From positions 56,357 through 120,356 of the forward strand of contig JAQWFB010000003.1 in NCBI GenBank assembly GCA_028704635.1: a stretch of DNA of 64,000 bases, in the 5' to 3' direction. Made by a program: the position numbers and the translations under genes. The notes under the pieces were generated by a model. That model was not told the DNA's origin and did no database searches. It saw only the letters and a list, made by a program, of their open reading frames with translations. Source of the DNA: Candidatus Shapirobacteria bacterium (lineage in GTDB: Bacteria; Patescibacteriota; Microgenomatia; UBA12405). Positions 11,774-27,813 of the stretch are shown here, piece by piece. Every line of letters begins with the position of its first letter. Position 1 is the first letter of the stretch.

Positions 11774-11853
11774 TATCTTTTTGTCTTCATTAAACACTTT
11801 TTCTTTTTAAAATTTAGATATAAAATTAACCTAATTATCGATTAATATTTAAA

Positions 11854-12306
11854 ATGAATGATTGTGTTTTTTGTAAAATTGTTAGTGAAGAATTACCATC
11901 TCATAAAATTTGGGAGGATGAAAAACACATTGCTTTTTTATCAATTTTTCCAAATACTGCCGGTTTTACTGTTGTAATTCCCAAAAAACATTTTTCTAGT
12001 TATGCTTTTGATTTAGAAGACGATGTTTTAAAAGATTTAATAATAGCAGCCAAAAAAGTGGCCAAACTTTTAGACAGTAAACTTGAAGACGTTGGAAGAA
12101 CGGCCATGATTTTTGAAGGCTTTGGCATAGACCATGTTCATGCCAAATTATTTCCCATGCATGGAACTAAAATGACCGAGTGGACACCTTTTAAATCTAA
12201 TGTTGATAAATATTTCGAACAATATGAGGGTTATGTTTCTTCACATGATTATAAAAGAGAGGATGATGCTAAATTAGCAGAGCTGGCTAAAAAAATTAGA
12301 GAATAA
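11854..12306 (+). CDS. HIT-family (histidine triad) hydrolase
   Basis: CVFCKIV...FPNTAGFTVVIPKKH, and a DHVHAKLFP histidine-triad-like motif. Confidence 0.75.
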   Translation: MNDCVFCKIVSEELPSHKIWEDEKHIAFLSIFPNTAGFTVVIPKKHFSSYAFDLEDDVLKDLIIAAKKVAKLLDSKLEDVGRTAMIFEGFGIDHVHAKLFPMHGTKMTEWTPFKSNVDKYFEQYEGYVSSHDYKREDDAKLAELAKKIRE

Positions 12307-12309
12307 AAA

Positions 12310-12354
12310 AAAAGGGTTTGTGCGTACCTACAAGTAGGTAGCCAAACCCTTTTA
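12310..12354. terminator. Bidirectional intrinsic terminator between convergent genes
   Basis: aaaaaaaaGGGTTTGtgcgtacctacaagtaggtagCCAAACCCtttt. A long hairpin with A-run and T-run flanks. Confidence 0.55.
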
Positions 12355-12378
12355 AAGGACAAAAAGTTCAAGATTAAT

Positions 12379-13689
12379 TTATGGAAATAGTCTATTCGGA
12401 CCCCGATATAAAAAAGTTACTTCTCTGACATTTTTTTTACCTAAGAGTAGCATCAGCATTCGAGTCAAACCGAAACCATATCCACCATGAGGAGGGCAAC
12501 CATATTTGAAACAGTTATAATAGTATTTCAATGGTTCTAAATTTAACCCTTTTTCCTGAATCTGCTTTAAAAGTATGTCTGGACGGTGTTCACGTTGTGC
12601 TCCAGTTGTTATTTCCAACCCTTTCCAAAGAAGATCGAAGCTTTTTGTGATTGTCGGATCGTTTTCATCTCTCATATGATAAAAAGGTCGTACATTAGTC
12701 GGATAATCCGTCACAAAAACAAATTCATGGCCATATTTTTTTTTGATATATTCACAAAGTTTTTTCTCTTCCTCTGGATCCAAATCTCCTTTTTCACTAC
12801 GAGATAATTGGTGTCCAGCTTTTTCAAGTATTTGGTAAGCGTCTTTCATGGAAATTTTTGGGAACGGTCTTGTTGGAACAACAACTTCTGCCCCAAAGAT
12901 TTTTTTAATTTTGTCGCCAAAATTATCTTTGATATAGTTGAAAACATATTCTAACCATTTTTCTTCCCATTCCATCACATCATAATGTGATTCGATCCAT
13001 GAAATTTCACAGTCAACACTAATAAACTCAGTATCATGCCGAGACGTAAATGATGGGTTTGCCCTAAAAACAGGTCCAATTTCAAAAATACGATCGAAAC
13101 CTGCCGCCATCGCCATTTGTTTGTAAAATTGAGGTGACTGAGCCAAATAAGCTTGCTTATTAAAATAATCAACTTTAAAAAGCTCGGCCCCCGATTCACT
13201 TGGACTACCCATGAGTTTCGGCGAGTGAAGTTCTACAAAATGATTTTCATACCAAAAGAGTCTCATTGCGTGTTCGATAGCTGTTTGTATTTGAAAAATT
13301 AATAATCCTTGAGGATTTAATCTCAAATAGAGGAATCTCCAATCAGCTCGAAGTTCTTCCTGAAGTGTGTCAGTATTAATAGGAAGTGGCGAAAGTGCCA
13401 GATTTAAAACAATCAGTTTTTCAATCACGATTTCAAATCCATTTTTAGCAATGTTATTGCTGACAACTTTACCAATTATCTCGACTGCAGACTCCAATGT
13501 AAGATGATCTATTTTATTAGAAATTTCAACAGAATTTGTTTTTTCATTAATTGCTTGAATAATGCCTGTTTGGTCACGAATAATAACAAACTGCATTTTT
13601 TTTTGGTTTCGGATATTATTTACCCAACCAAGAATTCTGACTTCTTCATTAATATGGCTTCCTAAATTAGAAATAAGTGTTCGGTTCAT
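12379..13689 (-). CDS. Class II aminoacyl-tRNA synthetase, Asp/Asn family (archaeal-type; aspartyl-like)
   Basis: N-terminal OB fold. Motif 2 FRANPSFTSRHDTEFISVDCE and motif 3 GGYGFGLTRMLMLLLG. EFxSVDxE resembles AspRS. Confidence 0.8.
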   Translation of the reverse strand: MNRTLISNLGSHINEEVRILGWVNNIRNQKKMQFVIIRDQTGIIQAINEKTNSVEISNKIDHLTLESAVEIIGKVVSNNIAKNGFEIVIEKLIVLNLALSPLPINTDTLQEELRADWRFLYLRLNPQGLLIFQIQTAIEHAMRLFWYENHFVELHSPKLMGSPSESGAELFKVDYFNKQAYLAQSPQFYKQMAMAAGFDRIFEIGPVFRANPSFTSRHDTEFISVDCEISWIESHYDVMEWEEKWLEYVFNYIKDNFGDKIKKIFGAEVVVPTRPFPKISMKDAYQILEKAGHQLSRSEKGDLDPEEEKKLCEYIKKKYGHEFVFVTDYPTNVRPFYHMRDENDPTITKSFDLLWKGLEITTGAQREHRPDILLKQIQEKGLNLEPLKYYYNCFKYGCPPHGGYGFGLTRMLMLLLGKKNVREVTFLYRGPNRLFP

Positions 13690-13703
13690 AATAAAAATCT
13701 CCT

Positions 13704-15026
13704 TTACGGTTCAATTTTTCGTCCAAATGTTCTAAAAAATGGAATAGTGTCCCTAACATGAGGTATATCTAATAACCAGCGGATTAGTCTTTCAATTCCC
13801 ATTCCGAAGCCAGCATGTGGTACACAACCATATTGTCTTAAATCTTTAAGCCAGTCATATCTTTCATCGCTAAATTTATTTTTTTCAATCATTCTTTCGT
13901 CTAACATCTCAGGTAGATAAATTTTTTCAGCCACACCAAGAAGCTCACCATAACCGTTTGAAGCAATAAGATCAGCAGTCATAGTACGGCGTGTATCCAA
14001 TGGGTTAATTGAGTAAGGAAAAGGCTCAATCGTTCTAGGGATACCCACCACCCAAAATGGCTTATCATACAAAAATGACAAAATAGCCTCTTCATCAGAC
14101 CCTAAACTCTTACCAAATTCAATATCACAACCCTTCTTTTGTAAATAATTAATTGCTTCAGCATAATCGATTCTGGGAAATGGTGGATCCAAACCATCAG
14201 TGCAAATTTTTATATCAAGAGGTGAAATTATTTCTTGAATATTTTTTTCAAGGCAAAAAGCATTTACATAGCTAATAAGTGATTCGACCGTCGAGACAAT
14301 TCCTTCAAAATCGCAGAATGCTAATTCAGCTTTAATATGCCAGTACTCCATAAGATGTCTTTTGCTTCTACCTTCTTCTCCTCTAAAGCTTGGGCCAATA
14401 TTATAAATCCTTTCAAATGCATGAACAGCAGATTCAAGATAAAATCCAACACATTGGGTGAGAAAAACCTTTTGTCCATGTATATCCAAAAATAAAGCAG
14501 ATCCATCTTCATATAAAAGAGTTGGTGTTAATATAGGGGCGGTGATTTCAATAAAGCGATTTTCTTCAAACCAGTCGCGAACCTTCGCCATTAATAAACT
14601 CCTAAATTTCAGAATAGCAATGTTTTTTTCGTTTCTAATATAGAAATGTTTATTACTCATTAGGTATTCTTGAAGATCTGGGTTAAAAATGTCAATGTTA
14701 TCTCTTGGTGACGGGGAGAGACTAATTGTAGATTCACCAATGATTTGGTAGCTTGACGCTACGATATCAAAACTTTCTTTACCTTGCTGGAGTAATCCGA
14801 CGACTTTAATTGCGGTTTCTTTACTGATTTTTTTGATTCTTTCGTAATCATTCGGTGAAAAATTGTCTCTATTAAAAATAACCTGCATATTACCAGTAGA
14901 GTCGGTAATATTTACAAAAACAATTCCACCGTAGTCCCTTTTTGATTTACACCATCCGTGCATAGTAACTTCCGTTCCAATTTTGTTTTCATCCACCAAT
15001 AGGTCACTAATAAAAACACTTTTCAC
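13704..15026 (-). CDS. Class II aminoacyl-tRNA synthetase, Asp/Asn family (asparaginyl-like)
   Basis: Motif 2 FRGEEGRSKRHLMEYWHIKAELAF (AsnRS-like EFWxxExExAF) and motif 3 GFGMGIERLIRWLL. Confidence 0.8.
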   Translation of the reverse strand: MKSVFISDLLVDENKIGTEVTMHGWCKSKRDYGGIVFVNITDSTGNMQVIFNRDNFSPNDYERIKKISKETAIKVVGLLQQGKESFDIVASSYQIIGESTISLSPSPRDNIDIFNPDLQEYLMSNKHFYIRNEKNIAILKFRSLLMAKVRDWFEENRFIEITAPILTPTLLYEDGSALFLDIHGQKVFLTQCVGFYLESAVHAFERIYNIGPSFRGEEGRSKRHLMEYWHIKAELAFCDFEGIVSTVESLISYVNAFCLEKNIQEIISPLDIKICTDGLDPPFPRIDYAEAINYLQKKGCDIEFGKSLGSDEEAILSFLYDKPFWVVGIPRTIEPFPYSINPLDTRRTMTADLIASNGYGELLGVAEKIYLPEMLDERMIEKNKFSDERYDWLKDLRQYGCVPHAGFGMGIERLIRWLLDIPHVRDTIPFFRTFGRKIEP

Positions 15027-15326
15027 AATACAGCACTCCTTTCAATACTTTAAAAATCTTGAACTTTTTGTTAAAGAACTAATTTATGTAAATATTATTC
15101 TATGCAAATTACAGAATAATAGTAATTAAATTAAATTTGTCGAATTATACCACCAATTTATATCTTAAATACAGTAAAAAACTGAGTATTAAAAACTTAT
15201 TCAACAAAAAAATATTGGAATTGAAGAATATTCAGCAACAGGTTCACAGAGAACACCAAACGTTCCACGAGATGGAAATTGTACGAAGTATTTACGTATG
15301 AATTTATTAGTAATTCAGAACGGGTT

Positions 15327-18300
15327 TTAAGGAGTAATTATAGTGCTAACGTTTAACAGTTTATAATCGTAATAACTTTGAACCTTATCATAAGAATATT
15401 TTTTTACTCGATATACACTTTTTAAAATATATCCCAATCTTAAATTATGGTGTTTTAACCATTCATCTAAATATAATTTGTCTATCATAAGATGTTGGCC
15501 ATGATGTATCGGCAAATCACGGTCATACCTTTCCCTTAACCCTCCAAGCCAGTCACTATACTCAATAATATTTCGACTATTTAAATCTTGATACGACCAT
15601 TTATCTTCTTCTATCTTCAAGTTAAGATTTTTTGAAAGTTCAGGGGTTACATTTAAACTGATTTCCCTATCTCTATAATACTGCCATAAACCAATGCAAA
15701 AATCGTCGTTTCTAGATGTTAATGGATAAATAAACATGTCCTTTAGTTGAGTAAATTCATCACCAATGAGAATAAAATTACTTTGATCTTCAAGAAAATG
15801 AAAAGGATTATTTGTTTTTGTTGGTATTCTTGTAATTGTTTGGCTATATAGTACTTCTTTTGCTATTTCTTCAGGTGATGGAAGCTGTTTCCCGGTTACT
15901 TTATAACCGAAACCTATTAGAGAAAATGAGTGCATTGGAGGTGTGGATTGCCAATCAATACCCGGTTTTATCGAACCTTCGGCTGCAAGTAAATACTTTC
16001 CATCTCTTATTTCACATAATGTTTCAATAGGTTTTTTTAAAGATAAAGAAACAATATTACTTTTTTGGGATACTTCTCCATCGTTTAATTGCGGCCACCA
16101 ACTAGGAATTGGTTTTGGTGATATTTTCCAAAATGATAGTTCGACAGGCAAAGTAGCGTAAGCCCATTCAAGATAAATATCGTTAGGAATTTCTTTTTGA
16201 CTGTGAAAATATTGTAATACCCTAATAAATGCTGATCGATAAACCTGACTTACCTTCGAGGAAAATCCAATAACGAAATCATCATTCTGACTTCTACCCA
16301 TGAAATAGGTTTGATTAGAATCAAGGATAGTGGAGGTATTTTCAACTATCTTATCTGAAACATACGACCAATATTTTATAAATGGTTTACCAGTTGCTTT
16401 TTCGATTTCCTTGGCTCTAATCATATAAATAGGTGCTAGGAATGTTTTAATATGTCCTAAAAAAAACTTGGATATTACATAATTTATAGGAGGGATTTCA
16501 ATCTTTTCATAATTAAGTTCAAATGACTTTGTGGACTTTAATAATTCTGCTATCTCAGAAACCAGTTTATCTACTACAATAGAATTGATTTTTATGGAAT
16601 TTTCGATATCCTTGTAAGAAATATAACTTAATTCACTTATATCTCTTACTAAAAAAATTGCTTTTAAAATAACTAATAACCCGATTGCGATAGTACTTTC
16701 CATTTTTTGTTGGCTAATCCAAACTAGAAGTCTTGTAAAAATGTCTTTTTTGTCTTTAGACTCAATTAATAATCTTGATATCGATGTGGCTGCTCTTTCC
16801 TGAGTAATAGTACTTGGCCATAATAGTCTTTGAAAAAGAAGATCTATAAGATCAATTGAATTTTTATCTTTTTGCCATTCAATATCTGGTAGAGCTAGAT
16901 TGGCCATCAATTCTTCAGCGAATAAAATACTTGAATCAGTGATCTCTTCCGCGACAGCTTGATCATCAAATTGTAAAAAATATTCAACTCCAGTAGAAAG
17001 TGGAACCCCGCCTTCGGTACTTTTTTTGAAGAACTCTAAATATCTTTTTGGGAAAAGTGTTTTAACAATATTCCATCTTTGTTCTGCCTTTTTTTTATCT
17101 GTCCAATATTTTTGCCATCCATGATCGTTTGTTTGTGCGGAACATAAATACTCAAAAGCTTCTTGATTATCAAACTCTTGAGCAAGAGGGAATATTGTAT
17201 CTAATAATTCACCTGAAACATTTTGGATACCATATTTTTTGATCAACTCTTTACAAATCTTATAAACTTCTTTTTTGTCATAATTATCTGTCCAATACTT
17301 TGACCAACCTTTCAAATAATCTGACATTTGCCACTTGTTTTCAAAGTTTGATTCTAAATATGATTTCAGATCATCTGGTTTTATGGTTGAATAATCAATT
17401 ATTTCAGGTGTATATGGTGTTGTATTTCCTCTGTCTTCTTCAGGATAATTAATTTCTCCAAGATATTCTTCGATATTGTTTAATGCGATTTTTGCACCAG
17501 AATTGTTTTTTGATTGTTCTTTTAGAATTGTGAATGATCCCTTATCCAATGCAGTACTCGACAGAGCTATTTCAATGTCGCTTGAATAAGTAAACGATTC
17601 TATTAATATCTTGAAGAGGTTTTCTGCATGATATAGTTCTTCATTTTTGGTAGCATAATACAAGTTTTTAAATAGTAGATTTCTATTTCGTTTCGCCAGT
17701 AAACTTGCCAACTCATCCCTAAGATAACCTGTTTCATCACCGTCGGTATATTCTCCAATGTGCTCAATAATTGGGATAAGTTTATTAATCCAATTATTAA
17801 TTTTTTCTGTAGGTAAGCCGTTTTCAGCACAAAAATCAATAGCTTCTAACACTTCGAATAGAAACATGTCTTTGTGATAGCCGTATCCAAGTAAATTATT
17901 TATGGCGTCTATTAACAGTGGCTTTGAGGTTTTTTCATTATCATATAGGCGGATTAATTTTGTAATTTCGGCATAACCTTTTGATCTATCTGGAAAATAA
18001 GTCACCGAGTCTATCAGCCCTTTAATCTTTTCGTCTCTTATTTTTTGAAAAACATTTTTACTCAATATGGCAACATCGTAATCAAGAGAGAGATCAAGTA
18101 AATCTTTTCTACTGAATAAGAATGGTATTTTATCTATAAGTTTACAATCGTCAATTTCGAAGAGTAAACTGTTTCCGAAAAATGCTTTTATGTTCATGAG
18201 ATCTTTTAAAATTAAGTTTAAGGAATCATGAAAAGCATTTTGTATATTCAATGAATCTCTATCTTCGGGCCACTTAAGTTCCGGTATAGTAATTAAATTG

Positions 18301-21203
18301 ACAAATAAATCTTTATAATTTACTTGCGATTTGTTTATTGAATGCCCAATTGCTAAACTTGCCTCGAACAATGATTTCATAGCATTTACAGACCACTCGT
18401 TATTGGCGTTTTTCATCCAATCCTCTATAACTTTTTCCTTATTGGTTAAGCAATATAGAATTCCCGTCAAAAAACTTTCATAAAAAATATCCCTCCAATA
18501 GGCTCGTTCATTTGGATCGTGTTCTTTCAACACTATTGGGAAAGCGTCTCGAGCTGGTAAGATGGGGCAGTTTTTTATCGGCATACCTTTGATATGAAGG
18601 TAAATTAGCTCTAGTGAAGATAAATTTATTTTTTTATTGAGTAAACCAGACAGATCATGAGAGTTTTTTATAAAGCCGTGTCTAAGATATTCATACCAAA
18701 TTGCTTTTTCTTCATCAGATGTAAGTTTATATTGGAGAAGTTCTTCTAGTTTATTAGTTTGTCCTGTAGATAATAAAGCTGAACTATAAGTTTTAAATAA
18801 TAATGATGTTATGCCCAAATCATTAAATTGAGATATATAATCGTATATTTTTTTAACTTTATGATTTCTGTTAAAAATGATTGTCTCTAATAAAGCATTC
18901 GTGACCAAAGGAACTTCTTCATGTCGATACTCTTGATAATCAAGTCTCTCGATAAGTTCATCAATAATTGCTTTAATAATCCGATCCTTACCTACTGAAT
19001 CAGCTAAGCATGCTAATGTAGATAAAGTTTTTACTGGTAGTTCATTTATATTTATATGCTCAAACAAGTTTTGATTCTGAAAAAAAGATTCTTTCAATAT
19101 TAGCTCTGATGATTCTTCTATAAAACTTTTTGAGTTAATGTAATAATTATTAAGGTAAGAGAGTTTTAATGCTTTTGCAAAATCATTTTGTTCGAAGGCA
19201 ACTTTTGAAGCTTTTTCTAATTGAAACGATATTTGACTCGGATTTGAAGAAATACAAATTGCTTCTATAAGCCATTTTCTATCAATGTTTAGTATGGGGG
19301 TATTATTACCAAGGTCGCATTCGATTAATCTTAGTTCTGCCCACTTTAAATATTCATAAGATGATTGTTCAAGCCACTTTTTTATATTTGTCCTTAAAAC
19401 AATTTTTTGCTGTTCGAACTCAACTCGATTTTTAAGGTAGATTTCGAAACTATTATGGTAAACACTTAATTCGTCTCGATAATTAATTTTTATTAAGTGG
19501 GCTATGGAATTAAACCCACTGGTAATATCTGACGGATTAATTAAAGTGGATGAAACACACTCGATAAGTTGTTGTTCCGTAAAATGAAAATTTACAGAAC
19601 AAACTATTAATAATAGATTTTTTGCAATATCGGAAATTTTCAACCAAAGTGAGTCATAATATTTTTCAATATTCCCTGCATAAGGGATTAGATCACGGCA
19701 TGAGTATTCATTAACTACTGTGTTTCCATTAATGTTTTTTAACTGTTGAAGTGTATATCGTAGATGAAGTGGATTTCCTTTAGTAATTTCACAGACTTTA
19801 TTAACAAGCTCCTTCAACTGCTGAACATCTACTGGAAGTTTAAGAGATATTATATTCTTCTTTATCAAACTCGATATTGAAAATCTATTTAAACCATCAA
19901 TTTTAATCCAATCTTTTTCTGGACATTTTTCTGTGATTATTAAAGGCAAGTAAGGCTTTGCGACTAGTTGCATTCCAATTACTATCCAAACGCCCTTCTG
20001 AGGAAAACTGATTTCGTTTAAAAATGTTTTGAGTTCTTTATCTGCACCATATTTTAGCGGATGATCAAGACCATCAATAATGATTACGAAAGGTCTTTTA
20101 TTTTGTACTGACTTTTCTGCTATTTTTTTAATAAATTCACTTAATGGAAGACCTGGAGAGTTTATGTTTGATAATTCTTCAAGATCATCCTTGTGTATTT
20201 TGAATTGAGCTTTTATAGCATCTATTACGCGGTTAGAATTTAGCCTTTCCATTGGGTTATCATCTTCTGGAGAGATGTGATAGTGGTGCTTTATTGATAT
20301 TACCCCCAATTTATTTAACTGTTCATCTAACTTTGAAAGATAAACACTTTTCCCTGACCCTGGTTCTCCATATATGACCTTTATGCCACCATTAATATTA
20401 TTTAAATCTTTCAATATACCTTTATGAACTGTTTCATCAAAAAATTGAAAATCGGATGGAATTATAAATTTTTCATTTAATGGTTTTGGGATATCAAACT
20501 CACATTGTTTCCTGATTTCTTCGAGTCCAATATTAATTGTGTATTCGTCTTGAGCTCTATTTCGTATCCATTGAATAAAACTATCAAAGCCTGCTTTTGT
20601 AACATGTAGAGTATTGTAATAAAAATTTCTGACATCTATCCCAAACTCATCCTGACTCTTTTGAGAGAATTTGAACTTAAGTTTCTTAAAGAACTGTGTT
20701 GTCAGTTTCTGTCCACCAATTAGTTTTTCGATGGATTTATATAAAACCAGGTCACTCTTTTTTATTAACTCAATATCAATTAATTCATTTTTTAGATATT
20801 TCTTGACTTCTCTAGAAGCTCCGGCATTTGTGATAAAAAAAGCAGTATCTGTATTATTATAAAAACTCTGATTGTTTAGATCTCCTCTGAACAGGGAATA
20901 AGCCCACTTATTTAAAAGTGATTTTTTGCTTTTTGGAAGAGGCTCAATTAATTCACTCCAGGTCCATACATTATTTGGGTCTACTTTATGTTTAGTCTGA
21001 TATAATTCGTATTTCCCTGCCAAATTTGTTACAACAATATCATCTAAATAAAAGTCTTTTTGTTCATTTTTATCTGGATTAACTTCAAATTGTATGGATT
21101 GATATGCTTCTGGATTTAAAAGCCAATCACCAGCTAATTTGACTCCCCATAACTCTTGGTAATAATCTCCTTTTTTTCTAGCACTAGTAATATTTTTTTT
21201 CAT
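15327..21203 (-). CDS. Giant STAND/NACHT-type P-loop NTPase with an N-terminal Mrr-like (PD-(D/E)xK-type) domain and a C-terminal helical-repeat region; Avs-like antiviral candidate
   Basis: 1958 aa. Walker A VIYGEPGSGKS (aa 276-286). Walker B-like FVIIIDGLDH (the hhhhDGxDE pattern of NACHT/STAND). N-terminal GDYYQELWG...DFYLDDIVVTNLAGKYELYQTKHK resembles the Mrr_cat D...(Q/E)xK core. About 1300 aa of predicted alpha-helical repeats sit C-terminal. The overlapping small ORFs in the track are spurious. Confidence 0.6.
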   Translation of the reverse strand: MKKNITSARKKGDYYQELWGVKLAGDWLLNPEAYQSIQFEVNPDKNEQKDFYLDDIVVTNLAGKYELYQTKHKVDPNNVWTWSELIEPLPKSKKSLLNKWAYSLFRGDLNNQSFYNNTDTAFFITNAGASREVKKYLKNELIDIELIKKSDLVLYKSIEKLIGGQKLTTQFFKKLKFKFSQKSQDEFGIDVRNFYYNTLHVTKAGFDSFIQWIRNRAQDEYTINIGLEEIRKQCEFDIPKPLNEKFIIPSDFQFFDETVHKGILKDLNNINGGIKVIYGEPGSGKSVYLSKLDEQLNKLGVISIKHHYHISPEDDNPMERLNSNRVIDAIKAQFKIHKDDLEELSNINSPGLPLSEFIKKIAEKSVQNKRPFVIIIDGLDHPLKYGADKELKTFLNEISFPQKGVWIVIGMQLVAKPYLPLIITEKCPEKDWIKIDGLNRFSISSLIKKNIISLKLPVDVQQLKELVNKVCEITKGNPLHLRYTLQQLKNINGNTVVNEYSCRDLIPYAGNIEKYYDSLWLKISDIAKNLLLIVCSVNFHFTEQQLIECVSSTLINPSDITSGFNSIAHLIKINYRDELSVYHNSFEIYLKNRVEFEQQKIVLRTNIKKWLEQSSYEYLKWAELRLIECDLGNNTPILNIDRKWLIEAICISSNPSQISFQLEKASKVAFEQNDFAKALKLSYLNNYYINSKSFIEESSELILKESFFQNQNLFEHININELPVKTLSTLACLADSVGKDRIIKAIIDELIERLDYQEYRHEEVPLVTNALLETIIFNRNHKVKKIYDYISQFNDLGITSLLFKTYSSALLSTGQTNKLEELLQYKLTSDEEKAIWYEYLRHGFIKNSHDLSGLLNKKINLSSLELIYLHIKGMPIKNCPILPARDAFPIVLKEHDPNERAYWRDIFYESFLTGILYCLTNKEKVIEDWMKNANNEWSVNAMKSLFEASLAIGHSINKSQVNYKDLFVNLITIPELKWPEDRDSLNIQNAFHDSLNLILKDLMNIKAFFGNSLLFEIDDCKLIDKIPFLFSRKDLLDLSLDYDVAILSKNVFQKIRDEKIKGLIDSVTYFPDRSKGYAEITKLIRLYDNEKTSKPLLIDAINNLLGYGYHKDMFLFEVLEAIDFCAENGLPTEKINNWINKLIPIIEHIGEYTDGDETGYLRDELASLLAKRNRNLLFKNLYYATKNEELYHAENLFKILIESFTYSSDIEIALSSTALDKGSFTILKEQSKNNSGAKIALNNIEEYLGEINYPEEDRGNTTPYTPEIIDYSTIKPDDLKSYLESNFENKWQMSDYLKGWSKYWTDNYDKKEVYKICKELIKKYGIQNVSGELLDTIFPLAQEFDNQEAFEYLCSAQTNDHGWQKYWTDKKKAEQRWNIVKTLFPKRYLEFFKKSTEGGVPLSTGVEYFLQFDDQAVAEEITDSSILFAEELMANLALPDIEWQKDKNSIDLIDLLFQRLLWPSTITQERAATSISRLLIESKDKKDIFTRLLVWISQQKMESTIAIGLLVILKAIFLVRDISELSYISYKDIENSIKINSIVVDKLVSEIAELLKSTKSFELNYEKIEIPPINYVISKFFLGHIKTFLAPIYMIRAKEIEKATGKPFIKYWSYVSDKIVENTSTILDSNQTYFMGRSQNDDFVIGFSSKVSQVYRSAFIRVLQYFHSQKEIPNDIYLEWAYATLPVELSFWKISPKPIPSWWPQLNDGEVSQKSNIVSLSLKKPIETLCEIRDGKYLLAAEGSIKPGIDWQSTPPMHSFSLIGFGYKVTGKQLPSPEEIAKEVLYSQTITRIPTKTNNPFHFLEDQSNFILIGDEFTQLKDMFIYPLTSRNDDFCIGLWQYYRDREISLNVTPELSKNLNLKIEEDKWSYQDLNSRNIIEYSDWLGGLRERYDRDLPIHHGQHLMIDKLYLDEWLKHHNLRLGYILKSVYRVKKYSYDKVQSYYDYKLLNVSTIITP

Positions 21204-21282
21204 TCTGATTTAGTGCAATTATACTATTACTTCTAGTAAATAGAAGATAAAATACATTGTAAGATCAATATATTTTCTAAAG

Positions 21283-21789
21283 TTGGTAAAATTGATTATG
21301 GGTCAATTATTTAAATTTCGTGGTTTAGATTATAAAAATTACGAACTAAATTTTAAACAAAAACTATTCTGTGATGGGTATCTAAATTCCAAAGGTGATT
21401 CTATATCAGCAGTCGAAGGTGCAGGTTACAAAGTAAGTGATAATAGAAGATTAGCCTCGTCAATAGCCTCGGAGAACCTAACAAAACCTAACATTTGTGC
21501 ATATTTGAACTTGAAACTAAAAGAAAGTGGATTGGATGATGAATTTGTAGATAAACAACTGCTTTTTTTAGTAAATCAATATTCAGATTTGAGAGTAAAA
21601 CTATCTGCAATTGATACCTATTACAAATTAAAGGGTAGATATGCTCCTAAAAAACTAGATATAAAAGAGGAAAAGAATATTTATAAAGACATGACAGATG
21701 ATGAATTAGATCGATTAGCTTGGGGAGAAAATTATGAGCTCTATAAAAAAACTAAAGCTAAAGAACAGACACAACAACAATCTAATTAA
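21283..21789 (+). CDS. Phage terminase small subunit (Terminase_2 / P27 family)
   Basis: LNFKQKLFCDGYLNSKGDSISAVEGAGYKVSDNRRLASSIASENLTKPNICAYL matches the family consensus KQxxFCxEYLxxxNATxAAxxAGYS...ASENLTKPxI. No large terminase, portal or capsid gene nearby. Confidence 0.7.
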   Translation: MVKLIMGQLFKFRGLDYKNYELNFKQKLFCDGYLNSKGDSISAVEGAGYKVSDNRRLASSIASENLTKPNICAYLNLKLKESGLDDEFVDKQLLFLVNQYSDLRVKLSAIDTYYKLKGRYAPKKLDIKEEKNIYKDMTDDELDRLAWGENYELYKKTKAKEQTQQQSN

Positions 21790-21809
21790 TTTTGTAATTA
21801 TTTAAGAGT

Positions 21810-22514
21810 ATGGATATCAAAACCACAAAGCTAAACTGGACCAAATCAAAGAATGGAATCTTAATGGATTTTGAACTTGATGTGGTTATTCATCCTTTCA
21901 ATAACGGAAAAATAATTATTAATGTTCCTGGAGCTGATGGGTCCATTAATGGATACGAAGATAAATATATTAAGATTGCTAATTATTTAGTTGAACAAAA
22001 AATCGGAGCTGTGGTTAGGATACCCAACATTTCATCTTTAGGGTTTGGTTGGGATATTAATTTAAGAGAAACGCTTTCTTATGTCTTAGATAATGCCAAG
22101 GAAATCTGTGGTAGTAGTAAACCGGAAATATATCTAATGGGTCTTTCTGCGGGGGCTGGTGCTATTTCTATGACTGCTTGGGAATATCCTGAGGTTACAA
22201 AAATATTATTAGTAGAACCAGCTTTAATTTTTAGTGGTGAACATGGGGTTGAAGGAATTAGAGAATACAAAGGTGAAGTTACTATTGTTGTTGGCAAAGG
22301 AGATACGGCTTTAGGTAAAGAGGTTGGTGATAAATTCTTTGATTATTTTATCAATGCTAAACATAAAGAAATTATTGAGATAGAAAATTGTGACCATCGC
22401 TTTATGGGAGAAACTAATGGAAGAATTTTTAGTGAAGCTCCAATCTACGCTTTTAAAGATGGAAAGAAGATTAAGTTCCCAAATCCAAATGGCGGAATAA
22501 AATTATACGACTAA
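21810..22514 (+). CDS. Alpha/beta hydrolase (dienelactone-hydrolase-like)
   Basis: Nucleophile elbow GLSAGAG. Downstream catalytic-type Asp/His (ENCDHRF). 234 aa. Confidence 0.55.
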   Translation: MDIKTTKLNWTKSKNGILMDFELDVVIHPFNNGKIIINVPGADGSINGYEDKYIKIANYLVEQKIGAVVRIPNISSLGFGWDINLRETLSYVLDNAKEICGSSKPEIYLMGLSAGAGAISMTAWEYPEVTKILLVEPALIFSGEHGVEGIREYKGEVTIVVGKGDTALGKEVGDKFFDYFINAKHKEIIEIENCDHRFMGETNGRIFSEAPIYAFKDGKKIKFPNPNGGIKLYD

Positions 22515-23300
22515 ACTTTTTGCTTTGTCTGTAAATAAGTATTTAGGATCAACACATGTGCCAATACGAGGTAGATCTAATCTATCAGCGTCAAGGCAGG
22601 TCTGAACAGTAATGTTATTGATCAATGGGCTATCTACTTTAGTCAATTCTTCAGGTGATAGGTTATGGTTTTTAACTGCAAACTTTAAAACTTCTATTTG
22701 ATCTTTATTTAAGTATTCCGGAAAACTATTACAGAAATTAACAGCTCTTTCACCATGAGATAGGTCCTCGTATTCATTAGCTCTACAATAATCATGTAGA
22801 ACAGAAAAGAAATAAATTACCTTTTTATCAGTTCCATTTTGATCGGCAATTTGTTTTCCAAATTTATATACATTTCGCCAATGAGAGAAGCCATGTACTC
22901 CAGTAAAATCGATTTTGGTCCCGGCTCCGGCATTATCAAGAAAGGCATATGGATTTTTAAAGATGAGATTTTCTATTAAGAAAAACATCCAACAATTAAA
23001 GTAATTATGTTGTCGAACAAAGAAACCGGTATCTAGTTCATTTATTTTGTCAAAGGTCATAAATGATTCGTGAGAAATATATTTATTACCTTCTCTTATA
23101 AAGTGAATTTTAAAAACAACGGTGGGATTCAAACTTCTTAGGATATAAACCCAATCATCTTTTGTTTCGATATACCAACGCTGAGTGTCGGGATTTTGAG
23201 GTTGTTTACGAGGACAGCCTTTCTTAATTAATTCAAACTCTTCTTCATTATATTCAAACCTAGTGTGAATCGAAGTATTGGCATTATCTTCAAATTTCAT
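22503..23300 (-). CDS. HD-domain phosphohydrolase-like protein with an extra N-terminal domain
   Basis: HGFSHW...SVLHDYCR...HGERA...CLDADRLDL follows the H...HD...D pattern of the HD superfamily. Confidence 0.5.
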   Translation of the reverse strand: MKFEDNANTSIHTRFEYNEEEFELIKKGCPRKQPQNPDTQRWYIETKDDWVYILRSLNPTVVFKIHFIREGNKYISHESFMTFDKINELDTGFFVRQHNYFNCWMFFLIENLIFKNPYAFLDNAGAGTKIDFTGVHGFSHWRNVYKFGKQIADQNGTDKKVIYFFSVLHDYCRANEYEDLSHGERAVNFCNSFPEYLNKDQIEVLKFAVKNHNLSPEELTKVDSPLINNITVQTCLDADRLDLPRIGTCVDPKYLFTDKAKSLVV

Positions 23301-23311
23301 AAGAGGATAAA

Positions 23312-23554
23312 TTATTTAAAAATAGACACTAAAAATACAATGGGTAAAATTATTAATAAAGCTAAAATTATATAAAGAATAGTTTTTATTACTTTATAAG
23401 TTTTATCATAAGTCTTTTTCAGACCTTTTTCTTCTAATTTCCCTTTTAATTTAGCAACATATTTTCTTTTTATTTCAGGCAAAATAAACCAACAAACATA
23501 GAGTAATCCACCAATAATTGCAGCTTTAAGTGATCCTAATAATATTTTTTCCAT
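23312..23554 (-). CDS. Small membrane protein (2 TM), hypothetical
   Basis: 80 aa with two hydrophobic helices. Confidence 0.4.
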   Translation of the reverse strand: MEKILLGSLKAAIIGGLLYVCWFILPEIKRKYVAKLKGKLEEKGLKKTYDKTYKVIKTILYIILALLIILPIVFLVSIFK

Positions 23555-23555
23555 A

Positions 23556-23744
23556 TTATTTTTCTAAACCGTGTCCTCTTAAACACATTTTATACTGTAA
23601 CTCCAATTCTTCGGCATTACTTGGTCTATTTGAAATTTTATCTACACAAATTGATCTGATATGGCTTGGTCGGTATCCATACCAATAGAAAAGAAATGAT
23701 AAAACGATAGTGAAAACTGTTATTGTAATAATCTTCATTTTCAT
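23556..23744 (-). CDS. Small membrane protein (1 TM), hypothetical
   Basis: 62 aa with an N-terminal hydrophobic helix. 1-nt spacing to the upstream ORF. Confidence 0.35.
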   Translation of the reverse strand: MKMKIITITVFTIVLSFLFYWYGYRPSHIRSICVDKISNRPSNAEELELQYKMCLRGHGLEK

Positions 23745-23767
23745 AATTTTTTATATTAATAATCAAA

Positions 23768-23866
23768 AAGCTCCCGTCAGTGATAACTTGCGTTACCCAT
23801 ACAAGTTTCCCTGTATGACCATTGAAGGAGCTCTGACGAGAGCTTACTGCCTTCAATGGCTTTTTA
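23768..23866 (+). ncRNA. Candidate structured RNA or terminator element (nested long hairpins followed by a T-run)
   Basis: GACCATTGAAGG(agctc-tgacga-gagct)tactgCCTTCAATGGC followed by TTTTTATTT: an 11-bp perfect stem enclosing a 5-bp hairpin. Upstream GCTCCCGTCAG can pair with CTGACGAGAGC. No coding potential. Confidence 0.3.
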
Positions 23867-24027
23867 TTTACCATGCCTAAAAGTTTATCCTTCTAGGTTT
23901 AGGTAACAAATTGTACGAACAACTTTATCTTACCATATACCTAATTCATTTAAAGGAAAATGAGGGATAATATAGTTTTTATTAAAAGAGATAACCATAT
24001 GTTATATCCATATGATAGGCCAAATTC

Positions 24028-24138
24028 TTGACTTTAATATTTATTTGAAGTAATATTTATTAGAAGTCAAAGACTTTTGTAGAGTTACAGAAAAACTGAG
24101 CTCTCGAACACGTTGTGTTCGGGGGCTTTTTTTTGGTT
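24028..24138 (+). ncRNA. Candidate small RNA: sigma70-like promoter (TTGACT, 17 bp, TAATAT) followed by an intrinsic terminator about 75 nt downstream
   Basis: TTGACTttaatatttatttgaagTAATAT at 24028-24056. Terminator CGAACACgttGTGTTCGggggcTTTTTTTT at 24107-24138. No ORF in between. Confidence 0.25.
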
Positions 24139-24165
24139 CTATTCATAAAAATTAAATAAAATAAT

Positions 24166-24441
24166 ATGGAAAATATTTGTAAATATGAGTATTTGTTTGA
24201 GAGTAAAGATTTAGCTGAATCGAGTTTTTTATTGGCAAAAGGAAAAATATTAGAATCTATTGAGAGAGAAGGTTCGGTTTGTTGGTTTGTTTTTCAGGAT
24301 AAAGAAAGTTGTGAAGATTTGGTCCGAAAATTTCGCTTTGGAGACTCAACTATACAAGCAAAGAAATTCTACGAAGCTATTCAAACCCTTAAAAAATTGA
24401 TATTCCCGGGAGGTAATCGAAATGATCCAAAATATCCTTGA
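24166..24441 (+). CDS. Hypothetical protein (mobile-element cargo)
   Basis: 91-aa ORF. No recognisable motif. Confidence 0.35.
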   Translation: MENICKYEYLFESKDLAESSFLLAKGKILESIEREGSVCWFVFQDKESCEDLVRKFRFGDSTIQAKKFYEAIQTLKKLIFPGGNRNDPKYP

Positions 24442-24958
24442 GATCGAAAAAAAATTCCCAAACTGGTTTAATCAATTTTCTGATTTATCTTATGAGGATC
24501 AGAAATATATTTGGGAAAATATACCTCTAATTAAAGACTTAAAGGATAATAATTTAGAACATAATACCAATGTTAATGGTAATGATAATGGTGCCTGTAA
24601 ACAAAAAGTAAACACAAAATTAACAACGAATAAACAACAAGTAATAGAAAGTTTATTGAAGTGCAACTATAGGACACCTCCACGACTTATTGCTTCATAT
24701 TTAGAAGTATTGTTTTCAAAATTCGAGGCGAAGGAGGGTCACTGGTTATGGATAGCACAACATTACACGCCCAGATCGACAAACCAAGTTATTTTAGAAA
24801 TACTAAAGCTACATAGTTCTGGAAGGTGTAGGGTAGTTAATCCAGGAGCAATGTTTACTTTTCTAATTAAAAAGAGAAAGAAAAGAAAAGTGTTTAGAAA
24901 CACCAATGGTGTCTATAAACAACAAGGTAAAGAACAGATTGGGAGGGTAAAATGTTAA
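24422..24958 (+). CDS. Hypothetical protein (mobile-element cargo)
   Basis: 178-aa ORF overlapping its neighbours by a few nt (operon-like). Basic C-terminus KKRKKRK. Confidence 0.4.
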   Translation: MIQNILEIEKKFPNWFNQFSDLSYEDQKYIWENIPLIKDLKDNNLEHNTNVNGNDNGACKQKVNTKLTTNKQQVIESLLKCNYRTPPRLIASYLEVLFSKFEAKEGHWLWIAQHYTPRSTNQVILEILKLHSSGRCRVVNPGAMFTFLIKKRKKRKVFRNTNGVYKQQGKEQIGRVKC

Positions 24959-25140
24959 GCGATAAAGCAGTGATCGAATACATGGAAATTTATCGTCTGG
25001 AATATGGAAAAGATATAAATATTGAGGCAGCACGAAAACAAGCAACTAATCTATTGAAATTAATTAAATTAATATCCACTCCATCGACACCACTTAATGG
25101 TTTAATAATTGACAAACGAGGAAAATATGAGAATAATTAA
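24952..25140 (+). CDS. Hypothetical small protein
   Basis: 62 aa, overlapping the previous ORF by 7 nt. Confidence 0.3.
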   Translation: MLSDKAVIEYMEIYRLEYGKDINIEAARKQATNLLKLIKLISTPSTPLNGLIIDKRGKYENN

Positions 25141-25206
25141 ATTGCAACCAGGATTATCATTAGGACTTTTTAATGCCCTCATTGGACAGAGTCTTAATGA
25201 TTCTGG

Positions 25207-26973
25207 TTGCACCAATGGGGGCATTTAAGTATGGAAAACAAATATTTTATATACTGTAGAAAATCTAGTGAACAAGAAGATAGACAGGTTCTTTCTCTGG
25301 ATTCACAAGAAAAAGTTTTGGTGAATTTGGCAAAGGAAGAAAAACTGAATGTTATAGATATTTTGAGAGAATCTGGAACTGCACATTCAATGGGGAGAAA
25401 AATATTTGCAGAAATGAACTTGAGATTATTACGAGGTGAGGCTAATGGACTACTTGTCTGGGATGAATCACGAATTGCTAGAAATGCTGGTGATGGTGGA
25501 ATGATAATTAATATGTTTGATATTGGTAAATTGGTGGAAATAAAAAAACCTGGAAAAACTTATCGAAACACTCCTGATGATAAATTCTTTTTAAATTTAA
25601 TATTTTCGATGTCAAAAAAAGAATCAGATGATAAAGGAGTAAATGTAAAAAGAGGTTTAAATACAAAGGCTGAAAAAGGATGGTTACCAAGTGGAGCAAA
25701 ACCTGGATATATGAATGATAAATATGCAGAAAAGGGAAATAAAACAATAAAATCTGATCCTGAAAGATTCCCGATTATTAGAAAAGTCTGGGATCACTTT
25801 ATTTATCAAGGATACTCAATACCTAAGATTTTAAAAAAAATGAATGATGAATGGGGTTATAGATCCCCTGTTAAGAGATCTATTGGGGGTAAACCAATGT
25901 GTCGAAGTCAATTGTATTTAATCCTTCGCGATCCTTTTTATTATGGCTATTTTGAATATCCAATTGGTAGTGGAAAATGGCGTAAAGGAGCTCATAAGCC
26001 GATGATTTCTGAAGAGGAATTTAATAGAGCACAAGTAATCCTTGGTAGGAAAATGGCTCCTAAACCACATAAAACTGAATTTGCTTATACAGGTTTAATT
26101 ACTTGTAGTGAATGTGGAGCAAGAATAACAGCGGAAGAAAAGTGGCATACAGTGTGTTCTGTTTGTAAAACGAAATTTAATTCAACTCATAATAATATCT
26201 GCCCGAATTGTGGAATAAAAACTGAAGATATGGATAAACCAATTATTCGACATTACATTTATTATCACTGCACTAAAAAGAAAAATCCTAATTGTGTTCA
26301 AAAGAGTGTTGAGATAAAAGAGTTAGAAAGACAATTGGATATTTTGTTAGGTGAGGTCCAAATATCAGATAGGTTTGTAAAATGGGCGTTAAAACATTTA
26401 AATGAGCTTAATGATGAGGAAGTTGAAGATAGAAATAATATTGTTAATGCCCTTCAAAATACCTACACTAATTGTTTAAAAAAATTAGATAATTTAACAG
26501 CCTTGATGATTTCTCCTAATAATGCTGATCGATCACTGTTAAGTGATAACGAGTTTAAAGAACGGAAAACAGAAATATTAGAAGAAAAACAAAAATTAGA
26601 AAATCAGATGAATAATACCGGAAGAAGAGTGGAAGATTGGTTAAAAGAAGTTGAAGATAAGTTTGATTTTGCCACACAAGCAAGGAAAAAATTTAATGAA
26701 CCTGATATAACAATTGAAGAAAAAAGAGAGATGATGTTTAGGATAAGTTCGGACCTCAAACTTTATAACAAAAACATCGATGCTTTACTGGAAAACTTAT
26801 ATGAGCCTCTCAGGAGAATAACAAAGGGAGAACCTACAACAAAGCTAGAGTTCGAAACTAAAGAAATAAAGGAAAAATACGGTAATTTAGAGTCTTATTG
26901 GACTCAAAATCCATTAGTGCTCGGCGGAAGGGATGGGAGTCGAACCCACATGCCATTTCTGACGCAGGTTTAG
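25207..26973 (+). CDS. Large serine recombinase (resolvase/invertase N-domain, recombinase domain, Zn-ribbon)
   Basis: N-terminal YFIYCRKSSEQEDRQVLSLDSQ with catalytic Ser/Arg. ARNAGDG...PGYM recombinase domain. Cys-rich CSECGARITAEEKWHTVCSVC...CPNCG zinc ribbon. C-terminal coiled coil. The last roughly 17 codons (positions 26925-26973) overlap the tRNA-Ser gene on the opposite strand. Confidence 0.85.
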   Translation: MHQWGHLSMENKYFIYCRKSSEQEDRQVLSLDSQEKVLVNLAKEEKLNVIDILRESGTAHSMGRKIFAEMNLRLLRGEANGLLVWDESRIARNAGDGGMIINMFDIGKLVEIKKPGKTYRNTPDDKFFLNLIFSMSKKESDDKGVNVKRGLNTKAEKGWLPSGAKPGYMNDKYAEKGNKTIKSDPERFPIIRKVWDHFIYQGYSIPKILKKMNDEWGYRSPVKRSIGGKPMCRSQLYLILRDPFYYGYFEYPIGSGKWRKGAHKPMISEEEFNRAQVILGRKMAPKPHKTEFAYTGLITCSECGARITAEEKWHTVCSVCKTKFNSTHNNICPNCGIKTEDMDKPIIRHYIYYHCTKKKNPNCVQKSVEIKELERQLDILLGEVQISDRFVKWALKHLNELNDEEVEDRNNIVNALQNTYTNCLKKLDNLTALMISPNNADRSLLSDNEFKERKTEILEEKQKLENQMNNTGRRVEDWLKEVEDKFDFATQARKKFNEPDITIEEKREMMFRISSDLKLYNKNIDALLENLYEPLRRITKGEPTTKLEFETKEIKEKYGNLESYWTQNPLVLGGRDGSRTHMPFLTQV

Positions 26974-27007
26974 CAAACCTGTGGCTTACCATTCGCCGCA
27001 CCCTTCC
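26925..27007 (-). tRNA. tRNA-Ser (anticodon GCT), class II with a long variable arm
   Basis: Minus-strand sequence GGAAGGGtgCGGCgaatggtaaGCCaCAGGTttGCTaaACCTGcgtcagaaatggcatGTGGGttcgactCCCATCCCTTCCg. 7-bp acceptor stem, anticodon loop TTGCTAA, T-loop TTCGACT, discriminator G. Confidence 0.75.
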
Positions 27008-27063
27008 TGGGGATAGTGTTTTAGTATATCAAATTTTTCTCAAATGCTTTAAAATTAAAACAA

Positions 27064-27602
27064 TGAAGAAGAAAGCAGTTAGCAAGGTTGATAAGGCGAT
27101 AAAAGACATTAACGAAGAAAAAACTTTATTCAAATGGACAGCCGCCGAAAGGGCATTTAAGAAGAGAGACAAAGATTTTTGGATCACTGCTATTTCCATT
27201 TTAGTTCTATTTTCAGTCGTTTTAATTTTTATTGAAGAATTTTTTCTAATCGTCGCTCTCGTTTCAGTTTTATTTTTATATTACGTTCTCTCTACTGTCC
27301 CTCCTCAAGAAGTTAAATATAAAATTACCAACAGGGGAATTCATTTTGGTGATTCAAAATATAGTTGGGACATTTTATTAAGATTTTGGTTCAGGAAAAG
27401 TCTTAACGTTGAGCTTTTAGAATTTGAAACTAATCTAAGAGTTCCTCGACAAATTTCTTTTGTTATTAAAGAATCTGACAAAGAAGAAATAAAAAAAATT
27501 GTTTTAAAAAAATTACCTTTAGTTGAATCATCGCCAAATTTTGTTGATAAATTGGCCAAGTGGTGGAACGATAAAATGCCTTGGGAAAAACGGGAAAAAT
27601 AG
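27064..27602 (+). CDS. Hypothetical membrane protein (the tracked ORF trimmed to an internal Met)
   Basis: The tracked ORF starts at 26898 inside the tRNA-Ser gene. The likely real start is MKKKAVSKVD at 27064. Two TM helices. Confidence 0.45.
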
Positions 27603-27634: not shown

Positions 27635-27706
27635 GCGCTTATAGTTTAATGGATAGAATAGCGGTTTGCGGAACCGTTGATCCAGGTTCGATTCCTGGTA
27701 GGCGCA
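27635..27706 (+). tRNA. tRNA, most likely Arg with anticodon GCG by my manual fold
   Basis: GCGCTTAtaGTTTaatggataGAATaGCGGTttGCGgaACCGTtgatCCAGGttcgattCCTGGTAGGCGCa. Acceptor and T arm (GGTTCGATTCC) are clear. Anticodon loop TTGCGGA. Promoter-like TATAAT sits upstream. Confidence 0.7.
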
Positions 27707-27719
27707 CTCTTTAAAAAAT

Positions 27720-27801
27720 GGAGGGTTGGCCGAGTGGTTTATGGCGCACGCCTCGAAAGCGTGTGGGGAAACCCGCAGAGGTTCAAATCCTCTACCCTCC
27801 G
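27720..27801 (+). tRNA. tRNA-Ser (anticodon CGA), class II
   Basis: GGAGGGTtgGCCgagtggtttatGGCgCACGCctCGAaaGCGTGtggggaaacccgcAGAGGttcaaatCCTCTACCCTCCg. Anticodon loop CTCGAAA, long variable arm, discriminator G. Confidence 0.8.
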
Positions 27802-27813
27802 CTCAATATTTAA

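Follow-up and report, generated by a model that had tools for sequence, protein, structure and literature searches.

The 64,000-nt stretch of DNA analyzed here (the window) spans positions 56,357 to 120,356 of contig JAQWFB010000003.1 from a Candidatus Shapirobacteria bacterium (GenBank assembly GCA_028704635.1). At its positions 25231–26973 (plus strand) it carries the gene for a large serine recombinase (LSR, the integrase), which lies at one edge of an 11.7-kb integrated element and whose open reading frame (ORF) runs into the antisense strand of a tRNA-Ser(GCT) gene. The LSR, recognized from Pfam, PHROG and homologue matches, has 580 amino acids when counted from the ATG at 25231; the mechanically called ORF starts at a TTG (25207). 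The ORF matches the Pfam families Resolvase, Recombinase and Zn_ribbon_recom, with the catalytic domain (PF00239, E=1.5e-13) at residues 14–158, the Recombinase domain (PF07508) at 36.8 bits and the zinc ribbon (PF13408) at 26.8 bits, above its cut-off of 25.3. About 200 residues lie C-terminal to the zinc ribbon. R10, S12 and S13 are nearly invariant in an alignment of 51 sequences, in which eight cysteines are invariant, and the protein matches a PHROG integrase family (2.4e-54). By its domains the protein is a large serine integrase, with a putative activity in integration by recombination of the attachment sites attP and attB.

The tRNA gene was called by ARAGORN as tRNA-Ser with anticodon GCT at 26923–27007 on the minus strand, and the Rfam tRNA model scores 50.9 bits (gathering score 29) at 26925–27007. 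In its fold, the acceptor stem has 7 bp, the variable arm is long and the discriminator is G, as a first-pass annotation of the bare sequence had described it. The 3′ end continues as CC-G, so that CCA is not encoded. The LSR ORF and the tRNA share 51 nt (26923–26973), the reverse complement of the 3′ strand of the acceptor stem, the T arm and part of the variable arm, which provide the last 16 sense codons and the stop codon of the integrase (GGRDGSRTHMPFLTQV). The C-terminus of the protein thus reads ...WTQNPLVLGGRDGSRTHMPFLTQV. The first-pass annotation had counted about 17 LSR codons within the tRNA; the overlap is real, but the first of these, a leucine codon (CTC, 26920–26922), lies on the element side and contains the TC at which we place the crossover.

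On the other side of the tRNA lies a host gene for a DUF5673 protein (27063–27602, plus strand), whose true start is the ATG at 27063. From this start, residues 1–179 of the protein align to relatives at up to 97% identity, and to the left of 26921 the relatives' sequence is unrelated to the window. The longer ORF at 26898–27602 is, on these alignments, an over-extension through the tRNA, which the first-pass annotation had suspected. The tRNA-Ser(GCT) gene stands beside the DUF5673 gene in more than 20 relatives that have no recombinase.

Junctions of the element and the empty host site

The DUF5673 protein (27063–27599) was used as a query against metagenome contigs and retrieved 24 loci from close relatives (at most 97% identical). 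The LSR was found in none of them, and all 24 lose nucleotide similarity to the window at 26921–26924. Two of these loci, L123 and L127, provide empty sites, with ...CACATAGAACACCAAACGTTC ahead of the tRNA. At 15238–15265 the window has ...CACAGAGAACACCAAACGTTC, followed by unrelated sequence. This segment matches L123 at 1014–1041, the 28 nt that abut the tRNA in the empty site, and further similarity extends to the left of 15238 across a 27-nt indel. The host-encoded 3′ end of the LSR gene (26923–26973) is identical in L123 and L127 and is not conserved among LSR homologues.

The comparison delimits two hybrid attachment sites. The integrase-proximal junction (P-B′, 26897–26947), placed by a four-way alignment, has its TC at 26921–26922; similarity to related LSR genes ends there at ...GTGCTC. 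The integrase-distal junction (B-P′, 15238–15301), placed by the L123 match and the alignment, consists of the host flank ...GAACACCAAACGT, the TC at 15264–15265 and a P′ arm (15266–15301) that would complete a free-form LSR ORF. Aligned on the dinucleotide, the empty site reads ...AAACGT-TC-GGCGGAAGGG..., the left junction ...AAACGT-TC(15264–15265)-CACGAGATGG... and the right junction ...TTAGTGC-TC(26921–26922)-GGCGGAAGGG.... From these arms we reconstructed attP as ...TTAGTGC-TC-CACGAGATGG... (in a longer form, ...CAAAATCCATTAGTGC-TC-CACGAGATGGAAATTGTACGAAG...) and the empty attB as ...GAACACCAAACGT-TC-GGCGGAAGGGATGGG.... The two junctions and the empty site have only the dinucleotide TC in common, and this is the identity that a serine-integrase crossover would be expected to leave. 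Read in the sense of the tRNA, the crossover dinucleotide is GA and occupies trailer positions 3–4 after the discriminator. Between the two junctions, and by comparison with the host relatives, lies an integrated mobile element of 11,657 bp (15266–26922, counting one copy of TC).

We interpret the locus as the product of an integration event. The element very probably entered by serine-integrase recombination between attP and an attB made of the 3′ end of tRNA-Ser(GCT) and its trailer. The integrase gene stands at the very end of the element, and attP falls within the final dozen codons of this gene. Strand exchange at the central TC would have fused the integrase ORF to the antisense strand of the tRNA and left the 11 codons of its former tail (HEMEIVRSIYV*) at the opposite end of the element (15266–15301). 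The displacement is limited to these last 11 codons, and the 564 upstream residues are contiguous. When translated, the excised form (P joined to P′) would give a protein of 575 aa that ends in ...QNPLVL-HEMEIVRSIYV*. This tail conforms to [DE]x[VI]R[TS], as do those of homologues that do not sit at a tRNA, such as P0002 (...PVVDYIRTSVCGN). The tRNA gene (26923–27007) would be the B′ arm of the former attB, and the LSR would read its acceptor end and T arm as the B′ half-site, with the zinc-ribbon domain presumably contacting a T-loop-like motif. The variable C-terminal tail would be tolerated rather than required, and the element should still be able to excise.

That the element integrated at this tRNA, as the first-pass annotation had proposed, follows from the host empty sites and the identification of both junctions. 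The crossover lies in the trailer and not in the mature tRNA, and its pattern is that of a serine rather than a tyrosine integrase. Hence the element supplies no tRNA sequence, the mature tRNA-Ser is entirely host DNA, and a second tRNA copy is not expected. Indeed, the partial second copy of the tRNA 3′ end that the first-pass annotation had suggested looking for did not turn up: a search for the 51-nt segment found none at up to three mismatches.

The distal boundary was also sought by other routes. A direct-repeat search of positions 1–40000 returned nothing relevant, a minus-strand terminator scan for the old tRNA trailer was uninformative, and searches for P′ with the arms of L083 and L002, two loci of related integrases, and by tblastn with tail peptides gave no match. 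The P′ of the window is too diverged for a similarity search and was located only via the host empty site. The intergenic region at 21204–21282, where synteny with L002 ends, was considered as the left boundary and rejected given the host flank at 15238–15265, which places the large STAND-type ATPase gene inside the element. Similarly, the hairpin GAGCTCTCGAACACGTTGTGTTCGGGGGC at 24098–24128 contains GCTC and TCGAAC and was considered as a junction; this was rejected because in L002 and L084 the hairpin lies within the element, and compensatory changes preserve its pairing.

The host side of the junction has features of its own. The flank of tRNA-Ser is a variable hot spot that differs among relatives (window 11755–15265; L145 2103–3974; L126 8835–9863; L124 4338–9863). 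L145, the closest relative, has a different 1.9-kb set at this position, encoding a 238-aa protein, a 162-aa membrane protein and a 102-aa protein; besides the element, the window flank carries a HIT protein and two adjacent class II aminoacyl-tRNA synthetase paralogues. The 60–90 nt directly downstream of tRNA-Ser are conserved among relatives though the DNA beyond differs (window ~15200–15263; L123 ~955–1041; L127 ~9775–9860; related flanks in L134, L143 and L146), and the window copy of this stretch carries a 27-nt deletion. The conserved stretch may represent a trailer structure, a terminator or what is left of older insertions. Just 3′ of the DUF5673 gene are tRNA-Arg(GCG) (27635–27707) and tRNA-Ser(CGA) (27720–27802), both on the plus strand, so that three tRNA genes lie within 900 nt of the insertion site.

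The integrase family and its attachment sites

A database search returned 1,719 homologues of the LSR, the best of which is 81% identical and also 580 aa long; those with a source name are mostly labelled Patescibacteria. Their C-termini have in common ...W.QNP..L, after which they diverge into the translated antisense strand of the local tRNA. The suspicion of the first-pass annotation that the C-terminus is derived from the junction was therefore sound. Frequent continuations are PRVDSNHEP, PREDSNLEP and GWEESNLR, all translations of the reverse complement of T arms; D-S-N, for example, results from GAT-TCG-AAC in this reverse complement. A rough classing of the tails of the top 120 homologues gave 46 T-loop-like tails, at least 33 two-residue tails and about 25 longer tails unrelated to tRNA.

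To these protein comparisons we added 84 genomic loci, in which each LSR stop codon and tRNA was located (about 86 LSR genes with a stop). The LSR ORF overlaps the 3′ end of an antisense tRNA in 56 of the ~86 genes, by 10–123 nt, and never stops short of the tRNA in the tRNA-associated loci; several more loci have a tRNA-type tail with an ORF that runs off the contig. The overlapped tRNAs have 14 amino-acid identities, led by Asn (21), His (7), Gln (6) and Trp, Leu and Ser (5 each), and also include Lys, Ile, Tyr, Ala, Glu, Gly and Arg. Far ends were read in some of these loci as well. The far end of L041, 7.97 kb upstream of the tRNA junction, consists of a host terminator hairpin, TGGCTC and then CACATCGTGAATGAAGTTATAACC, and its near end of the LSR 3′ end, TGGCTC and then tRNA-Asn. 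Additional far ends in L007, L010 and L022 have 6–9 nt in common with the tRNA end. Judged by these sequences, this LSR clade seems to take tRNA 3′ ends as its default attB. A scan of viral contigs found only distant, shorter LSRs, none with an overlapping tRNA.

Two further observations concern the loci of this family. L002, L006, L016, L022, L029, L007 and L042 contain two LSR modules in the same orientation 6–9 kb apart, in which a tRNA-fused LSR lies downstream of one whose attP-like tail is intact. This arrangement suggests tandem accretion or composite elements with two integrases. In many members, the P arm, which is part of the LSR coding sequence, folds into a strong, GC-rich hairpin with a T-run in the 45–55 nt to the left of the tRNA 3′ end, 8–12 nt past the tRNA and on the tRNA's strand (L020, L015, L012, L016, L022, L024, L025, L032, L037, L040, L041, L064, L069, L074, L081 and L082). 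Its mean folding energy is −11.4 kcal/mol versus −5.4 in controls. The hairpin is encoded antisense within the conserved peptide ...EKSxAFxxxNP... (the last ~40 nt of the LSR coding sequence) and looks like a replacement terminator supplied by the element. The equivalent in the window is weak (GAGTC-CAATAA-GACTC).

Where an LSR gene is not at a tRNA, its product closes with the conserved motif [DE]x[VI]RT[FY] or, in some clades, with a longer extension of ~35 aa (PLVDxFRNREIEFGFSLQNIQTVF...). The DNA of these tRNA-free forms reads TGG-C-TCC, where TGG is the complement of CCA, followed by 11–13 nt and then GA(Y)GTT(A/C)GAAC. They look like intact attP sites that mimic a tRNA end and carry a T-loop-like motif, with the tRNA end itself as the B′ arm of attB, and the two ends of L041 bear this out. 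Counted with the TC of TGGC-TC-C as the centre, GAAC occupies +20 to +23 in the attP forms versus +15 to +18 in the tRNA-Asn junctions. In the Listeria innocua (LI) integrase, the motif of the zinc-ribbon domain is shifted 5 bp inward in attB compared with attP (PMC3783163). The mimicry of the tRNA end by attP and the 5-bp offset of GAAC match this published model of attP and attB.

Several points weigh against the account of the window given above. No recombination directionality factor was recognized among the genes of the element, and both its excision and its activity are predictions. The match at the left junction is short (28 nt, E=1e-4), with another ~35 nt of similarity on the far side of the 27-nt indel; past about 90 nt, host synteny is lost. 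Furthermore, the T-loop GAAC of the tRNA-Ser site is at +20 to +23, the attP-like position, and not at +15 to +18. The body of this tRNA is 5 nt further out than at the tRNA-Asn sites, which gives its GAAC the register of the window's own P′. This off-register GAAC may mean that tRNA-Ser is a secondary site or that the enzyme reads different bases.

The first of these options, in which the cognate attB of the LSR subclade is tRNA-Asn and the tRNA-Ser trailer was used for its resemblance in the attB register, is possible but less likely than not. The 5-nt offset of the tRNA body is as such a reading would have it, and tRNA-Asn(GTT), with GAAC at +15 to +18, is the site of P0001 (81% identical) and P0004 (71%), the nearest of the tRNA-fused homologues examined. 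Between +8 and +18, tRNA-Ser (GGGATGGGAGT) and the tRNA-Asn of L001 (AGGATTCGAAC) match at 7 of 11 positions, a weaker match. Against a secondary site, L071 and L082 are also at tRNA-Ser(GCT), and the window site has a dyad symmetry of its own, in which GGTTC in the B arm (−23 to −19) mirrors GAACC at +20 to +24. Moreover, the P′ of the window differs from that of L083, so that the specificity of the enzyme may have co-evolved.

Another proposal would add to the integration account rather than replace it. The attP could be embedded deliberately in the stop-proximal codons, such that the C-terminus of the integrase reports the integration state and the free-form tail tunes its activity, stability or directionality, with the LOOT RNA described below possibly in the same module. 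An integrated element would then produce an integrase isoform that differs in function. We consider a programmed switch of this kind, and the deliberate placement of attP that it entails, rather unlikely. Consistent with it, attP lies inside the LSR ORF throughout the family, and conservation of the free-form tails persists among LSRs of only ~50% identity and reaches well past the ~8 codons that a half-site needs. However, the tails of integrated forms are arbitrary translations of tRNA antisense, anywhere from 2 to about 40 aa long, which suggests that the tail is dispensable at least for maintenance, and the short tail motif is also explicable by a DNA constraint on the P′ half-site (GTT(A/C)GAAC encodes V-R-T).

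Classical integration of the tyrosine type, in which the element brings its own copy of the tRNA 3′ end, crosses over inside the tRNA and displaces a partial copy, is very improbable here. An element at a tRNA 3′ end with an adjacent integrase is the usual look of such islands. Yet the enzyme is a serine recombinase and has no Phage_integrase match, no second 51-nt segment was found at the mismatch limit given above, the junction identity is confined to TC, and the aligned sequence from 26923 onward does not differ between the window and the empty sites in L123 and L127. Least probable of all is a coincidence of ORF calling, in which a resident recombinase gene merely runs to the first stop codon inside the tRNA: AT-rich genomes do give long chance extensions of ORFs, such as the one at 26898–27602, but the element is absent from the loci of all 24 relatives with a breakpoint exactly at the tRNA end, and the antisense overlap recurs in 56 of the ~86 homologous genes and is never below 10 nt.

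Cargo genes and the LOOT RNA

Half of the element is filled by a gene on the minus strand (15327–21203) for a STAND/NACHT-like ATPase of 1,957 aa, identified by weak Pfam matches to AAA_22, NACHT and NPHP3_N. Neither this gene nor its neighbours had a PADLOC match; the ATPase could be an unclassified defence-type cargo gene. It is followed on the plus strand by a gene resembling the small terminase subunit (21283–21789; Pfam Terminase_2 34.4 bits, PHROG 51), which has a syntenic copy in L002, and by an ORF (21810–22514) without a Pfam or PHROG match. A protein with a weak HD-domain match (Pfam HD E=6e-4, below the curated cut-off) is encoded on the minus strand at 22503–23300. By tblastx synteny, the latter two are absent from the related element in L002. 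Two small membrane-like ORFs from the ORF list (23312–23744, minus strand) have no PHROG match.

On the minus strand at 23782–23905, Rfam recognizes the LOOT RNA (RF03000) with 88.4 bits against a gathering score of 46.4, over positions 1–121 of the 121 of the model. The RNA carries its own terminator, a 3′ stem and T-run, and is divergent from the integrase operon. In 17 of 85 LSR loci, and on two viral contigs of IMG/VR, LOOT recurs at a distance of about 1–8 kb from the LSR gene; it is absent from the 24 host loci that lack the LSR. Loci with LOOT include L002 (8551–8664), L003 (6020–6138), L082, L008, L022, L023, L016, L030, L031 and L038, as well as L045, L043, L027, L046, L058, L053, L102 and L095. 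Since a stem and T-run follow it directly, LOOT has the appearance of an independent small RNA that travels on these mobile elements. In the text of its 2017 discovery paper, the only match to LOOT is an author name in the reference list.

Upstream of the LSR, a three-gene module on the plus strand (24166–25140), recognized by Pfam DUF5659 and by synteny, encodes a DUF5659 protein (91 aa) and proteins of 178 and 62 aa. Together with the LSR it forms an operon (24166–26973) whose order is kept in L001, L002 and L084. The three proteins are candidate regulators or a candidate directionality factor. A promoter-like site precedes the operon and is followed by the conserved hairpin and T-run at 24098–24128 (plus strand). 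The hairpin keeps its pairing through compensatory changes relative to its equivalents in L002 and L084, and may be an attenuator of integrase operon expression. No replication genes (primase or helicase) were found by Pfam or PHROG among the ORFs of the element, nor any PHROG matches to structural virion proteins, and most ORFs match nothing. The element is possibly a small, cargo-carrying, satellite-like island, by analogy with the tycheposons that bear terS.

Relation to known systems and significance

The mechanism is that of ordinary LSR integration; the target class and the position of attP are unusual. LSRs of phages such as Listeria A118 (LI), Bxb1 and phiC31 have the same three-domain architecture as the LSR in the window. 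As here, they cross over at a 2-bp central dinucleotide within quasi-dyad attachment sites that have no other identity between attP and attB, and their outer half-site motif is shifted 5 bp towards the centre in attB compared with attP, a shift also seen at the tRNA-Asn sites of this family. Unlike phage LSRs with a protein-coding attB, the attB here is the end of a tRNA gene, and attP lies in the last codons of the integrase.

Other elements at tRNA genes offer partial parallels. The islands and prophages of tyrosine integrases also abut the 3′ end of a tRNA that remains functional, at hot spots and with the integrase at the tRNA-proximal edge. In contrast to these, the enzyme here belongs to the serine family, the crossover is in the trailer, the repeat is 2 bp with no duplicated tRNA segment, and what many family members supply is a replacement terminator rather than a replacement tRNA end. 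For the position of attP, the nearest parallel is with archaeal integrases of the SSV1 type, which carry attP inside the int coding sequence; integration splits their tyrosine integrase gene in two. The attP of the element likewise lies in the int ORF, which is not partitioned here but leaves the catalytic and DNA-binding domains intact. In the integration-dependent immunity of mycobacteriophages, attP lies in the repressor gene and a tyrosine recombinase swaps its 3′ end to give a prophage isoform, with a demonstrated consequence. Here it is the tail of the integrase that is swapped and the consequence is only a possibility; a C-terminal switch, if true, would be the serine-integrase counterpart of that immunity. 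Tycheposons and PICI-like satellites are compact tRNA-associated elements with an integrase, terS and cargo, as is the element described here with its terS-like gene. Among tycheposons and related cryptic elements of Prochlorococcus, 27 of 937 have a large serine recombinase (bioRxiv 10.1101/2020.12.28.424599). The element differs from tycheposons in its host phylum, in having no detected replication module and in lacking partial tRNA repeats.

A survey in 2020 described the use of t(m)RNA genes by serine integrases as previously unreported, found 14 cases in 297 and considered it in need of proof (Mageeney et al., 2020; PMC7192596), and the word tRNA is absent from the main text of a later survey of LSRs (Durrant et al., 2022; PMC10083194). 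Our search of the literature for tRNA genes used by serine integrases of the candidate phyla radiation (Patescibacteria) found nothing specific, and this clade is not described in what it returned.

Transfer RNA genes are regarded as targets of tyrosine integrases; the family analyzed here would be a large natural clade of LSRs that uses tRNA 3′ ends. For several members, the junctions, an empty site or an intact attP can be read from sequence, which provides many natural pairs of attP and attB, and these follow the 5-bp register rule proposed from structural work. This suggests a way for a serine integrase to read a universal feature of an RNA gene, the acceptor end and T arm. Enzymes of this kind would have targets in nearly every genome and thus may be relevant to integrase-based genome engineering. 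The analysis also places the orphan LOOT RNA on mobile elements. Finally, the C-termini of integrases from metagenomes are often host-derived artefacts of the junction, which matters for annotation and for the choice of constructs.

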